24,000 nt of DNA, from assembly GCA_021163245.1 (NCBI GenBank), contig JAGGXB010000005.1:5713-29712 (forward strand), given 5' to 3'. The translations under genes were made by a program, and so were the position numbers. Below are positions 4,714-7,556 of the stretch, piece by piece. Source of the DNA: Thermoproteales archaeon (GTDB lineage Archaea > Thermoproteota > Thermoprotei > Thermofilales > Thermofilaceae). The notes below the pieces were generated by a model that did not search any database, was not told where the DNA came from, and was given only the letters and a program-made list of their open reading frames with translations. Every line of letters starts with the position of its first letter. The first letter of the stretch is position 1.

Positions 4714-6360
4714 TTAGTAGCCTGGCATTCCACCAGCTCCAGGCATTCCTCCGCCTTCTCCTCCTTTCTTTTCCTTTGGTGGCGCTGCAGCTATTATGTC
4801 ATCGATTCTAAGTATCATTATAGCTGCCTCGGTAGCTGATTTAAATACCTGCTTTTTAACGCTTGCCGGCTCTATTACACCTACATCCATTGTATTCTCA
4901 ATCTTACCAGAATACACGTTTATACCTGCCCATTTCTCTGCTTCACTATGTCTTTTTCTCAACTCAGCTATTATATCCACTGGTTCTAATCCAGCATTCT
5001 GTGCCAATATTTCTGGAATACTTTCAACAGCCTCAGCATATTTAATAACAGCTAATTGTTCCTTACTCGGTAATGTCTTAGCAAATTCCTTTAATTTTAG
5101 AGCAACCTCTATCTCTACTGCTCCACCACCAGCAACTATTTTAGGCTCTCTAATAACATTCCTTACAACACTAAGAGCATCATGTATCGCTCTTTCTGCT
5201 TCATCAACAACATGTTCAGCTCCACCTCGAAGTAATATCGTTACTGCTTTGGGGTTGGGGCATCCTTCTACGAATACCATTTTTTCATCTGCAACCTTCC
5301 TCTCCTCGACTAGCTCAGCGCTACCAAGAACATCACTAGAAAGATCCTCTATCTTAGTAACTATACGAGCCCCAGTAGCCCTAGCAAGCTTCTCCATATC
5401 ACTCTTCTTAACCCTACGAACAGCCAAAATACCAGCCTTAGCAAGATAGTGCTGAGCCACATCGTCTATACCTTTCTGACAGAAAACAACATTAGCTCCC
5501 GATTCCTTTATCTTATCTACCATCTTCTTTAATATCTGAGCCTCTTGCTCTAAAAATAACCTTAATTGTTCTGGATCTGTTACATTTATCTTTGCTGTCC
5601 ATTCAGGCTTTTCAACCTCTAATGGAGTGTCGAGTAATGCAATTTTAGCATTCTCTATTCTTCTAGGCATGGCCGGATGAACAACCTCCTTATCTAAAAC
5701 TATTCCTTTAACTAGCTGTGACTCTTCAAGTGATTCCCCCTTCTTTTTCTCAATTTTTACCTCATCTAACGAAAATGTATATTTGCCATCCTTTTCGCTA
5801 ACAACCTGTAAAGCAGCATCAACCACAAGATCAGCTAAGAAATCCTTATATTCAGATACGATCTTACTACTTAAAGCAGTCATAGCAATCTTCTTTAAAA
5901 CGTTCTTATCAAGAGGATCTATTTTCTCTGCTATTTCATCAATAACTTTTACAGCTTGCTCCATTGCCTTCTCATATCCTTCTGTTATTATTGTAGAATG
6001 TATTTCTTGATCAAGTAACTCATTAGCACTTTCCAATAGTTTGCCAGATAAAACTACAACAGATGTTGTACCATCACCAACCTCATCGTCTTGTGCTTTG
6101 GCTACCTCTACAAGCATCTTAGCCGCTGGATGCTGTACTTCCATTTCTTTTAATATTGTTGCTCCATCACCGGTTATCGTAGCATTACCAAATGAATCAA
6201 CAAGCAGTTTATCCATTCCTCTAGGTCCTAAAGATGAAGCAAGTGCCTCAGCTATTACTCTAGCAGCATATATATTTGACCTTCGAGCATCCTTACCGGT
6301 TGTTCTAGAAGTTCCTTCTTTCAAAACCAAAATAGGTACAGCTTGCTGTGCCATACTCAT
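4714..6360 (-). CDS. ths: Thermosome subunit (group II chaperonin)
   Basis: 548 aa. Motifs: GPRGMDKLL, ITGDGATILKEM, EVGDGTTSVVVL, VAGGGAVE and a C-terminal GGMPGAGGMPGY tail. Confidence 0.97.
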   Translation of the reverse strand: MSMAQQAVPILVLKEGTSRTTGKDARRSNIYAARVIAEALASSLGPRGMDKLLVDSFGNATITGDGATILKEMEVQHPAAKMLVEVAKAQDDEVGDGTTSVVVLSGKLLESANELLDQEIHSTIITEGYEKAMEQAVKVIDEIAEKIDPLDKNVLKKIAMTALSSKIVSEYKDFLADLVVDAALQVVSEKDGKYTFSLDEVKIEKKKGESLEESQLVKGIVLDKEVVHPAMPRRIENAKIALLDTPLEVEKPEWTAKINVTDPEQLRLFLEQEAQILKKMVDKIKESGANVVFCQKGIDDVAQHYLAKAGILAVRRVKKSDMEKLARATGARIVTKIEDLSSDVLGSAELVEERKVADEKMVFVEGCPNPKAVTILLRGGAEHVVDEAERAIHDALSVVRNVIREPKIVAGGGAVEIEVALKLKEFAKTLPSKEQLAVIKYAEAVESIPEILAQNAGLEPVDIIAELRKRHSEAEKWAGINVYSGKIENTMDVGVIEPASVKKQVFKSATEAAIMILRIDDIIAAAPPKEKKGGEGGGMPGAGGMPGY

Positions 6361-6458
6361 TCACCTCTCTTAAAACTGTAAACAGCATTTTATCACTTCT
6401 ATATAAATCTTTCTATAAAAAATTAATATAAATAACGTGAAAAAGATATAGTGATTCT

Positions 6459-6887
6459 ATGGATAAGAAAAAAATGCTTAATATAATAACTATAATACTA
6501 CTAATACTGACTGCAGCTATAGCATTAAATATCAACCAAATTTTAAGAACACCTCTTAAAACTGAAGTACCTCTAGCTGTTGTTTCAAGCTGGAGCATGG
6601 AGCCGATATTTCATGTAGGTGACATGATTATAGTACAAGGATGTAAAAAATATAATATAGGAGATATTATTGTATATCAAGATCATTTTATAAAAACCAA
6701 GTTAATAGTACATAGAGTTATAAAAGTTAAAAATGATGCATATATTACTAAAGGTGATGCTAACTATAGTCCAGATGTTCACCCCGTGAAGAAAAATCAG
6801 ATTAAAGGTAAGGTTATTCTAGTTATACCCTATTTAGGTACAATTAAACTTTTATTTGAAAGAATTTATTATGCATTGAAAAGATAA
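6459..6887 (+). CDS. Signal peptidase I, archaeal Sec11/S26B type
   Basis: 142 aa. It has an N-terminal TM anchor, the catalytic-Ser box SWSMEPIFHVGD, the His box VHRV, and TKGDANYSPD. Confidence 0.85.
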   Translation: MDKKKMLNIITIILLILTAAIALNINQILRTPLKTEVPLAVVSSWSMEPIFHVGDMIIVQGCKKYNIGDIIVYQDHFIKTKLIVHRVIKVKNDAYITKGDANYSPDVHPVKKNQIKGKVILVIPYLGTIKLLFERIYYALKR

Positions 6888-6906
6888 AAGATTTTATAAA
6901 CATTTA

Positions 6907-6914
6907 TTTAAATA
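6907..6914 (+). promoter_or_regulatory. Putative TATA box (TTTAAATA) for a leaderless tbp transcript
   Basis: This AT-rich octamer is centred about 27 nt upstream of the GTG at 6939. That is the usual archaeal TATA-to-TSS distance, and no Shine-Dalgarno motif lies in between. Confidence 0.35.
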
Positions 6915-6938
6915 CCATATATAAAGTTATTTTACTAG

Positions 6939-7528
6939 GTGATAGATATCCCAAGACCATCATTTGAAATTCAAAATGTAGTAGCTTCAGTAACTCTGAA
7001 TCAACGTCTTGATTTAGAAAAAATTGCAGAACTAGTCCCTAATGCTGAATATAGCCCGGAACATTCTAGACCATATGGTCTAGAATCCGAGAGTTTCCGG
7101 GACTAGTTCTGCGACTATCAAAACCAAAGACTGCAACATTAATATTTTCGAGTGGAAAAATGGTATGTACTGGAGCAAAATCTGAATCTGAAGTATATAA
7201 AGCGGTAAAAAATATAATAAAACTTTTAAAGAATCACGGAACAGAAATTAAAAATGAGCCAATAATAGAGATACAAAATATAGTAGCAAGTGCAAACCTA
7301 AAAGCCGGAGTTGATCTGGAAAAAGCAGCTTATCTTCTAGAAAATGCTATGTATGAACCAGAACAATTTCCTGGATTAATTTATAGGATGCGTCAACCAA
7401 GAGTTGTACTTCTAATCTTTTCAAGTGGAAAAGTTGTATGTACCGGAGCTAGAAAAGAAGAAGAAGTAAAGGAAGCTGTAGATAACATATATAAGAAACT
7501 TAAAGAAATTGGCGTTTTATTACTCTAA
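6939..7528 (+). CDS. tbp: TATA-box binding protein, split gene: exon 1 6939..7062, exon 2 7092..7528 (186 aa after removal of the 29-nt BHB intron)
   Basis: Frame A from GTG 6939 (immediately after an in-frame TAG) reads [41 protein letters not shown]. Frame B from 7094 reads [33 protein letters not shown]... and continues into the listed ORF 7160..7528. Joined at 7062/7092, the two frames give both TBP repeats intact ([14 protein letters not shown]... and [14 protein letters not shown]...). The ORF-track entry is only an internal-Met fragment. Confidence 0.85.
7063..7091 (+). other. Candidate bulge-helix-bulge (BHB) archaeal intron inside the tbp coding sequence, 29 nt (ATTCTAGACCATATGGTCTAGAATCCGAG)
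   Basis: Central 4-bp helix: C7057-G7089, G7058-C7088, G7059-C7087, A7060-U7086. It is flanked on opposite strands by 3-nt bulges 7061-7063 (ACA) and 7090-7092 (AGA). The inner helix is 7064-7072 paired with 7077-7085 (9 bp, loop ATAT). Cutting after the second bulge nucleotide on each side removes exactly 29 nt and yields GAA C|AG TTT = E-Q-F. Confidence 0.7.
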
Positions 7529-7556
7529 AACTTTAAAATTTTATTTTTTATAACAA

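Follow-up and report, generated by a model that had tools for sequence, protein, structure and literature searches.

A Predicted Bulge-Helix-Bulge Intron in the TBP Gene of Thermofilaceae and Related Archaea

In the archaeal DNA that we analysed, a 24-kb stretch of contig JAGGXB010000005.1 with 32% G+C (hereafter the window, which means the whole stretch), the tbp gene, which encodes the general transcription factor TBP, is interrupted by 29 nucleotides (nt). We consider it highly likely that the interrupting segment, at 7063-7091, represents an intron of the bulge-helix-bulge (BHB) type in the TBP pre-mRNA. Homologous inserts in relatives share a conserved structure with covariation and one constant junction, both exons are under selection, and orthologues lack the insert precisely. 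On this comparison, it is very probable that tbp follows cbf5 as the second family of archaeal protein genes to need BHB-type RNA splicing. By analogy with the established processing of archaeal tRNA, rRNA and cbf5 transcripts (PMC6379350, PMC2738675), excision would take place at the RNA level, through cleavage by the endonuclease EndA and ligation by RtcB.

The Interrupted Gene and Its Predicted Fold

The tbp gene lies on the plus strand (6939/6948-7528). As a preliminary description of this DNA had noted, its two halves stand in different frames. The upstream open reading frame (ORF) runs from GTG 6939 to ...AEYSPE, continues with residues foreign to TBP and ends at TAG 7104-7106, which gives by translation a product of 55 amino acids, the length that had been proposed for the unspliced reading. 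The downstream part, FPGLVLRL...GVLLL, is read in another frame up to the stop codon at 7526-7528. Deleting 7063-7091 in silico joins the two in a single ORF of 186 amino acids that reads ...AEYSPEQFPGL..., with the same EQFPGL motif as repeat 2, as had been anticipated; the predicted protein across the splice junction is ...AEYSPEQFPGLVLR. This product carries two tandem TBP domains (Pfam: PF00352 twice, E = 1.3e-70) and is 81-83% identical to full-length archaeal TBPs, while the unspliced ORFs do not cover repeat 1. Judged on exon 2, the TBPs closest to that of the window are those of Thermofilaceae (81-88% identity). By ORF and translation, exon 1 (6939-7062, plus strand) encodes the N-terminal 41 amino acids, and its last base, C7062, is the first position of a Gln codon. 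The predicted 29-nt intron (7063-7091, plus strand) sits in phase 1 inside that codon, C^AG (carets mark predicted cuts), a call that draws on the restored TBP, on the homologous inserts and on a covariance model (R1). Exon 2 (7092-7528, plus strand), delimited by translation and Pfam, supplies the AG of Gln, then FPGLVLRL... and all of TBP repeat 2.

The sequence ATTCTAGACCATATGGTCTAGAAT at 7063-7086 is a perfect 24-nt palindrome, already recognized in the preliminary description; no other inverted repeat of 100% complementarity in the window is as long. It includes XbaI and NdeI recognition sites, and its 20-nt core occurs only once in the window even when 3 mismatches are allowed. In the proposed fold (all on the plus strand), the exon bases CGGA (7057-7060), within the Pro-Glu codons, would pair with UCCG (7086-7089) at the 3' end of the intron. 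This 4-bp central helix (H) would be flanked by 3-nt bulges on opposite strands, A-C^A at 7061-7063 and A-G^A at 7090-7092, and would continue into a 9-bp intron hairpin. The hairpin, which is the body of the palindrome, consists of the inner helix (h'; 7064-7072 with 7077-7085) and the loop AUAU (7073-7076), and so spans 7064-7085. The splicing endonuclease, presumably the broad-specificity (alpha-beta)2 EndA of the Crenarchaeota type, would cut each bulge behind its second base (after C7062 and after G7091), leaving 2',3'-cyclic phosphate and 5'-OH ends. An RtcB-type ligase would join the exons as ...CCG GAA C^AG UUU..., or Pro-Glu-Gln-Phe. Full-length TBP would come only from the spliced mRNA, and unspliced mRNA would yield the 55-amino-acid fragment. 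On the exon side of the bulges a single pair, C7056-G7093, is conserved (C-G in 37 of 38 rows of the alignment discussed below, both bases being also fixed by coding). This isolated pair is destabilising in the energy model and worth nothing energetically, so the element lacks the outer helix of the strict hBHBh' form and belongs to the relaxed HBh' class to which it had been assigned.

The fold of this one sequence proves nothing by itself. The codon choice CCG GAA ... UUU CCG GGA in the window creates a competing exon-exon helix of 7 bp, in which UUCCGGG of exon 2 (7095-7101, plus strand) pairs with CCCGGAA of exon 1 (7055-7061), and this helix is the one found in the minimum free energy (MFE) fold of the window. 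A loose BHB scanner, the kind of check that the preliminary description had recommended, turns out to be uninformative on a single sequence: it reports 99 motifs in the window versus about 108 in shuffled sequence, so that geometry alone is not significant. Because the MFE fold competes and shuffled sequences hold as many BHB-like motifs, significance has to come from comparison with relatives. As an alternative structure, the exon-exon outer helix was rejected on that comparison, since its pairs are present in only 7/38 and 20/38 rows, with 0 compensation.

Homologous Inserts, Covariation and Constrained Exon Codons

An insert of 26-32 nt interrupts the same codon in 70 loci (the window and 69 others), which hold 47 distinct junction-plus-insert sequences. 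The loci comprise the DNA of database TBPs, loci L017 and L038, and 54 metagenome loci, drawn from NCBI metagenome-assembled genomes (MAGs), ENA, JGI and Logan. A protein-based scan with one genome per species ranked uninterrupted genes first, and its best 80 loci held only 2 interrupted ones (L017 and L038). The yield was far higher when metagenomes were scanned with a DNA pattern anchored on the exon codons EY(S/N)PE ... FP ... GKMV, with the insert left unconstrained. The carriers are Thermofilum, Infirmifilum and related MAGs, on contigs of 32-57% G+C. The variants have a layout in common, ...CC(G/A)GAAC^R-(8-10 nt)-loop-(8-10 nt complementary)-U-C(C/U)G-A-R^AG-UUY..., within which the hairpin sequence is free to differ. 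Their lengths span all three phases, and 15 of the 15 phase-0 loci have an in-frame stop inside the insert loop, so that without splicing the gene reads truncated or out of frame in every case. One removal rule restores TBP ORFs of about 170-200 amino acids, the exceptions being contigs that end within the gene and L108/L130, where a second excision is needed.

The covariance model R1 matches the window at 7055-7095 with 56.7 bits (E = 3.6e-19), its only real match there. In 0.58 Mb of related loci it finds tbp sites only, plus one marginal match at L112:7867-7899 (17.3 bits, E approximately 0.006). The latter, GCGGAACATAAATCTCATAGGATCCGAGAATT, is antisense to a 398-amino-acid ORF. It lacks a hairpin, and its likeness is limited to the conserved ends of the intron; we judged it to be due to chance.

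A 24-nt palindrome that is perfect and consists of two restriction sites (XbaI and NdeI) looks artificial, and the preliminary description had itself raised the question of whether the insert is an assembly or sequencing artefact, in which case the hairpin would be chimeric or linker-like sequence. However, an independent assembly (L123), 98.8% identical to the window over 5.6 kb, contains the identical insert, and L136 has a copy identical at 28 of 29 positions. Moreover, the 47 distinct inserts come from many samples and assemblers. An artefact is thus exceedingly unlikely. The copy in L136 deserves a comment of its own. In the comparison with window positions 5462-8739 the flanks are only about 76% identical, whereas the near-identical intron includes both palindrome and loop; L110, which is similarly distant from the window, has an entirely different hairpin. 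Either slow evolution of the stem or exchange of introns would account for the likeness. A second intron type, AGCC...GGCU, is found in L106, L115, L138, L142 and L144 and forms a separate branch in a rough neighbor-joining tree. In L106 and L142, the two that were compared with the window, the gene neighborhood is the same as in the window.

We aligned 38 distinct homologous inserts and examined them with RNAalifold and pair counts, leaving the structure prediction unguided. RNAalifold predicts an inner hairpin and a central helix of 4 bp with a 3-nt bulge on its 5' strand. These are elements that the preliminary description had proposed, and all of its helix and bulge coordinates prove correct. 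Under the full BHB model, 97.7% of the alignment cells form a standard pair (central helix, 99.3%; inner helix, 97.1%), compared with 82.1% in column shuffles; when the partner is slid by 1-3 columns, only 6-50% are paired. Double changes are seen in 10 of the 14 pairs, including all of the inner helix (9/9) and one pair of the central helix, and the inner helix has 8-10 bp in all variants. The variable central pair is 7058/7088, G-C in 35 rows and A-U in 3: a synonymous change in the exon, CCG to CCA, goes together with UCCG to UCUG in the intron, and UCUG occurs exactly where the exon reads CCA GAA. The 5' bulge is unpaired in the consensus. Its first two columns are invariant A and C, and its third base is A in 36/38 rows (G in L017, U in L104). 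The columns of the 3' bulge are A, then G, A or U, then A.

Does the presence of the insert constrain the exon? At the intron-bearing site of repeat 1, in 56 distinct genes, the Pro codon is CCG in 53 and CCA in 3 (all compensated), and the Glu codon is GAA in all 56. At the intron-free site of repeat 2 in the same genes (52), Pro is encoded by CCA (17), CCT (16), CCC (10) or CCG (9), and Glu by GAG (39) or GAA (13). Intronless loci (51) are similarly free: Pro is CCA in 18, CCT in 17, CCC in 8 and CCG in 8, and the next codon is GAG in 22 and GAA in 19 (Glu) or GAC in 5 and GAT in 5 (Asp). The Pro codon downstream of the junction, a member of the rival exon-exon helix, is unconstrained. Synonymous sites of the exon are frozen exactly where the BHB model needs them to be, and only when the insert is present.

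These observations bear on the possibility that tbp in the window is a pseudogene, inactivated by a palindromic DNA element of the miniature inverted-repeat transposable element type while a second, intact tbp works elsewhere. The insert does break the frame, public annotations of relatives show only truncated TBPs of 140-153 amino acids, and the rest of the genome is beyond the scope of the window. Against this, purifying selection on the two exons is strong and equal among lineages in which synonymous sites have reached saturation: in 49 distinct intron-bearing genes the ratio of nonsynonymous to synonymous differences (pN/pS) amounts to 0.185 in exon 1 and 0.168 in exon 2, with pS at approximately 0.82-0.86. 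In exon 1, the last five codons are fixed by the search pattern and the other 21 are free. The structure of the insert is kept through compensatory changes, synonymous sites of the exon co-evolve with it, and it persists in genomes from 32 to 57% G+C. Nor does it behave as a dispersed element, since the palindrome core is unrepeated in the window and non-tbp matches of R1 do not exceed the marginal 17.3 bits in the related loci. We regard a pseudogene as highly improbable.

The junction itself is constant. Cuts after the second base of each bulge (C7062 and G7091 in the window) give Gln in 70/70 loci, encoded by CAG, or by CAA in L120, and the rebuilt Gln is part of the conserved EQFPG motif. 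A register shifted by +1 would give Arg (L017, where the first intron base is G) or Leu (L104, where it is U); a register shifted by -1 would read GAA and then GAG (Glu), AAG (Lys) or UAG (stop). Of the registers, only the excision of 7063-7091, as put forward in the preliminary description, produces Gln in all variants.

The same data speak to translational recoding, in which the ribosome would bypass the hairpin or shift frame and the RNA would stay uncut. Bypass elements, such as those of phage T4 gene 60 and the mitochondrial 'byp' elements, need matching take-off and landing codons and stay in the RNA. Like them, the TBP insert is short, forms a stable hairpin within an otherwise intact ORF and has a stop nearby, and in the window the take-off codon GAA (7059-7061) and GAG (7091-7093) could match. 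However, many variants have AAG or UAG as the landing codon, so that codon matching is not conserved in TBP; what is conserved is the BHB. A bypass from GAA to GAG would also drop the Gln of EQFPG, which is retained in both TBP repeats here, and the three length phases of the insert exclude a single frameshift rule. The 4-bp helix, the two 3-nt bulges and the covariation between exon and intron fit the needs of a splicing endonuclease, not of bypassing. Recoding is very unlikely.

Another possibility is a split TBP, in which the two ORFs are translated separately and the fragments assemble. Split genes exist in some archaea, and a downstream ORF is indeed present at 7160-7528. Its start, ATG 7160, is the first one downstream and lies 22 codons past the junction, so a conserved segment of 22 residues would be lost, and the 55-amino-acid product would carry 14 unrelated residues at its C-terminus. 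Moreover, a split protein offers no reason for the conserved BHB or the frozen exon codons. The chance that TBP is made in this way seems to us minimal, and we return to the BHB intron.

The preliminary description had proposed looking for close relatives that lack the 29 nt. L150 is intronless and shares 93% protein and 76% DNA identity with L104/L135; the gap between them is exactly 29 nt, at the junction. Its Ser-Pro-Glu codons are TCG CCT GAG and are thus freed from the constraint. Other Thermofilaceae MAGs encode an intronless TBP (P0021) at loci L148/L149, which have the same synteny and are therefore orthologues. In the rough neighbor-joining tree, intronless sequences nest among intron-bearing ones. 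This implies that the intron has been repeatedly lost or gained, on a tree too weak for counting the events.

A Second Predicted Intron, Opposing Evidence and Genomic Context

Here we give an example in which one allele appears to carry two introns. In L108/L130, the product obtained after the first excision (L108:1117-1159; L130:1107-1149; repeat 1) still stops, ...YEPEQ^PRA followed by a stop codon. The cause is a second insert of 27 nt, which occupies the equivalent site, EPEQ^FPGL, in TBP repeat 2 (L108:817-855, minus strand; L130:1411-1449, plus strand) and reads CCGGAAC^AGCCCAGGGCTTAGCCTGGGCTCCGAA^AGTTCCC. It has an in-frame TAG and keeps the layout of central helix, bulges and hairpin, while its hairpin sequence is different. 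The model R1, which was trained on repeat-1 introns only, gives it 48.3 bits; neither the intronless loci nor the remainder of the window hold a comparable match. Both TBP repeats offer the same target sequence, which suggests that the intron spread to a matching site, or else that gene conversion took place between the repeats. Intron transposition has been proposed for the tRNA introns of Thermoproteales (PMC4033280).

Several points weigh against a spliced intron. Among the 120 best database matches there is no spliced transcript or junction protein from an intron-bearing lineage, and the support is comparative only. The one of these 120 homologues that is closest to an intron-bearing locus, P0003 of L150 (93% identical), has a neighboring acetyltransferase gene on its contig and looks genomic. 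Our analysis of host DNA covers the 24-kb window, and an intact tbp paralogue elsewhere in the genome would be beyond its scope. Within the 24-kb window there is no EndA gene, and we assume the type of the enzyme on the basis of a Thermofilaceae-like affiliation and of published work (PMC6379350). The outer helix is essentially absent, which means that cleavage needs a broad-specificity enzyme. The MFE fold of the window favors the exon-exon helix, at -28.5 versus -18.0 kcal/mol for the BHB core (RNAfold, 37 °C); the gap falls to about 2 kcal/mol at 75 °C and to 0.8 kcal/mol at 90 °C. Finally, one lineage, that of L104, L133 and L135, shows an A x G mismatch within its central helix. Its intron may be degenerating near a loss event, the closest relative in our data being the intronless L150. 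The insert of this lineage, CTTCCCGGG...CCCGGGAGCCGAGAG, could form an alternative U.G pair through its first intron base.

The genes around tbp in the window encode crenactin, arcadin-1, Alba, two Hsp20 proteins, a thermosome subunit and an S26-type peptidase. Other neighboring genes encode a GNAT acetyltransferase, ribosomal protein L6, deoxyhypusine synthase, subunits of pyruvate:ferredoxin oxidoreductase, SUI1 and reverse gyrase. The order Alba, Hsp20, arcadin, Rpb6, thermosome, S26 peptidase, TBP, GNAT is common to the window and Thermofilaceae MAGs. From its reverse gyrase the organism is presumably a hyperthermophile, and we take crenactin and arcadin to indicate Thermoproteales-like Crenarchaeota. 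Three small ORFs that follow one another at 1921-2934 of the window (123, 123 and 93 amino acids) and a 313-amino-acid ORF at 8063-9004 match no Pfam family and occupy conserved positions in related loci (for example, L084:850-1883).

The window also contains a tRNA gene with an intron of its own. In its intron mode, ARAGORN reports tRNA-Cys(GCA), i(37,13), at 10056-10147 on the plus strand, with a 13-nt intron at position 37/38 (10094-10106), and the spliced form folds as tRNA-Cys. The default ARAGORN call at the same coordinates, tRNA-Ala(TGC), was replaced by this result. The variable region of the tRNA-Cys appears unusually long, at 7 nt. A scan of the window with Rfam at the gathering threshold returned zero families, tRNA included, and the tRNA model missed this gene because of its intron. 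With an intron-bearing tRNA-Cys gene in its genome, the organism needs tRNA-splicing machinery.

The truncated records mentioned above come from Thermofilum, Infirmifilum and related MAGs (P0066, P0077, P0080-P0086, P0089, P0090, P0100 and P0117), and all are truncated at the N-terminus (140-153 amino acids). Those of 148-153 amino acids start inside the intron and read M(SGSGI)REFPGL..., which is a read-through of the 3' end of the insert. The two records of 140 amino acids, P0089 and P0117, begin a few codons into exon 2 (MLRL.../VLRS...). These records look like a systematic misannotation caused by the intron, in which case the database TBPs of Thermofilum and Infirmifilum contain an annotation error that needs correction.

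Where does translation of TBP begin? A comparison of N-termini suggests that the true start in the window may be ATC 6948 instead of GTG 6939. The GTG sits within AGGTGATAG, and ATC 6948 is the codon aligned to the Met of MPKPTY. In many relatives this Met codon is replaced by ATT, ATA or ATC (L001, L084, L087, L090, L099, L109, L114, L119, L132, L136, L146 and others). These AUH codons lie a few nucleotides downstream of a GGTGAT-like Shine-Dalgarno motif, and in-frame stops close upstream often leave no ATG, GTG or TTG. It is possible that TBP translation in this clade starts at a non-canonical AUH codon. Among the loci compared, the AUH start shows no correlation with the presence of the intron, as the intronless L001 also has one. 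We also considered a further upstream intron in L114, L132, L147 and L084, which have short exon-1 ORFs, and rejected it: exon 1 is intact in these loci, and non-canonical start codons explain the shortness.

Significance and Comparison with Known Systems

In archaea, cbf5 is the only protein-coding gene for which an endonuclease-spliced intron has been demonstrated (PMC2738675, PMC6379350, PMC4033280), in agreement with the statement of the preliminary description. The literature that we searched mentions cbf5 as the only spliced archaeal pre-mRNA, plus unconfirmed predictions in Sulfolobus and a rudivirus. We found no description of a TBP intron in that literature, many subscription-journal papers being outside its coverage. 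A second family after more than two decades would show that splicing of mRNA by the tRNA machinery is not a curiosity of one gene. The TBP intron is conserved in a clade of family rank, with cultured species among its members, and its natural intron-plus, intron-minus and two-intron alleles make the gain, loss and recognition of BHB introns in mRNA tractable. The same alleles could be used to ask whether the supply of TBP is tied to the tRNA-splicing machinery.

It is tempting to speculate that the intron is more than passively tolerated, in that it would be mobile, would tie TBP supply to EndA and RtcB, and would act as a conformational switch. Taken together, we consider these three proposals unlikely. 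If the intron is mobile, BHB introns could colonize mRNA sites that offer the half-helix CCGGAAC^AG; the second intron of L108/L130, which differs from the first but has the same sequence context, fits the transposition proposed for the tRNAs of Thermoproteales. If TBP supply depends on splicing, the output of a general transcription factor would rely on, and perhaps be tuned by, EndA and RtcB, in an archaeal counterpart of XBP1/HAC1 control. If there is a switch, the competing exon-exon helix and weak non-AUG starts could set the balance between splicing and translation.

The nearest known system is cbf5, which encodes a pseudouridine synthase and whose pre-mRNA has BHB introns in Desulfurococcales and Sulfolobales (Watanabe 2002; Yoshinari 2006; Yokobori 2009, PMC2738675). 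In Crenarchaeota these introns form an unconventional BHB, interrupt the gene in codon phase 1 and are cut by a hetero-oligomeric endonuclease (PMC2738675). The Thermofilum cbf5 is intronless (Yokobori et al., PMC2738675). The cbf5 and TBP introns are alike in several respects. Both are short (cbf5, 22-31 nt in tabulated species), reside in an archaeal protein-coding gene and fall between codon bases 1 and 2. Both have an unconventional or relaxed BHB with predicted cuts between bulge bases 2 and 3, both are patchily distributed among related lineages, and genome annotation routinely misses both or takes them for a frameshift. The TBP intron differs in its gene, a general transcription factor, in its clade, Thermofilaceae and relatives, in its long, perfectly paired inner hairpin and in the lineage that has two copies at equivalent sites of an internal repeat. 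For cbf5, splicing has been shown experimentally, whereas for TBP it is predicted from comparison.

The non-canonical tRNA introns of Thermoproteales provide a second parallel. Their relaxed HBh' and hBH motifs are cut by an (alpha-beta)2 EndA with a Crenarchaea-specific loop (PMC6379350, PMC4033280), and only (alpha-beta)2 and epsilon2 endonucleases cut relaxed motifs efficiently (PMC6379350). These introns share with the TBP intron the 4-bp helix, the 3-nt bulges with cuts after the second bulge base, and a weak or absent outer helix. The host order is known for the proliferation of introns, for which transposition has been proposed, and the window has its own intron-bearing tRNA-Cys gene. 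In contrast to the tRNA introns, the TBP intron has an mRNA as its substrate, so that one strand of the helix, that of the exon, doubles as coding sequence with frozen synonymous sites, and there is no tRNA body to aid recognition.

A more distant counterpart is the IRE1-dependent splicing of HAC1 and XBP1 mRNA, which is independent of the spliceosome and uses a tRNA-type ligase (RtcB in metazoans). There the cuts are made by IRE1 on twin stem-loops, whereas TBP pre-mRNA would be cut by EndA on a BHB, and, of the two, only HAC1/XBP1 splicing is known to be regulated, by stress. The likeness lies in the outcome. In each system a very short intron (26 nt in XBP1, 29 nt in the window) resides in the mRNA of a transcription factor, its removal changes the frame, and only the spliced mRNA gives, or in TBP would give, the active factor.

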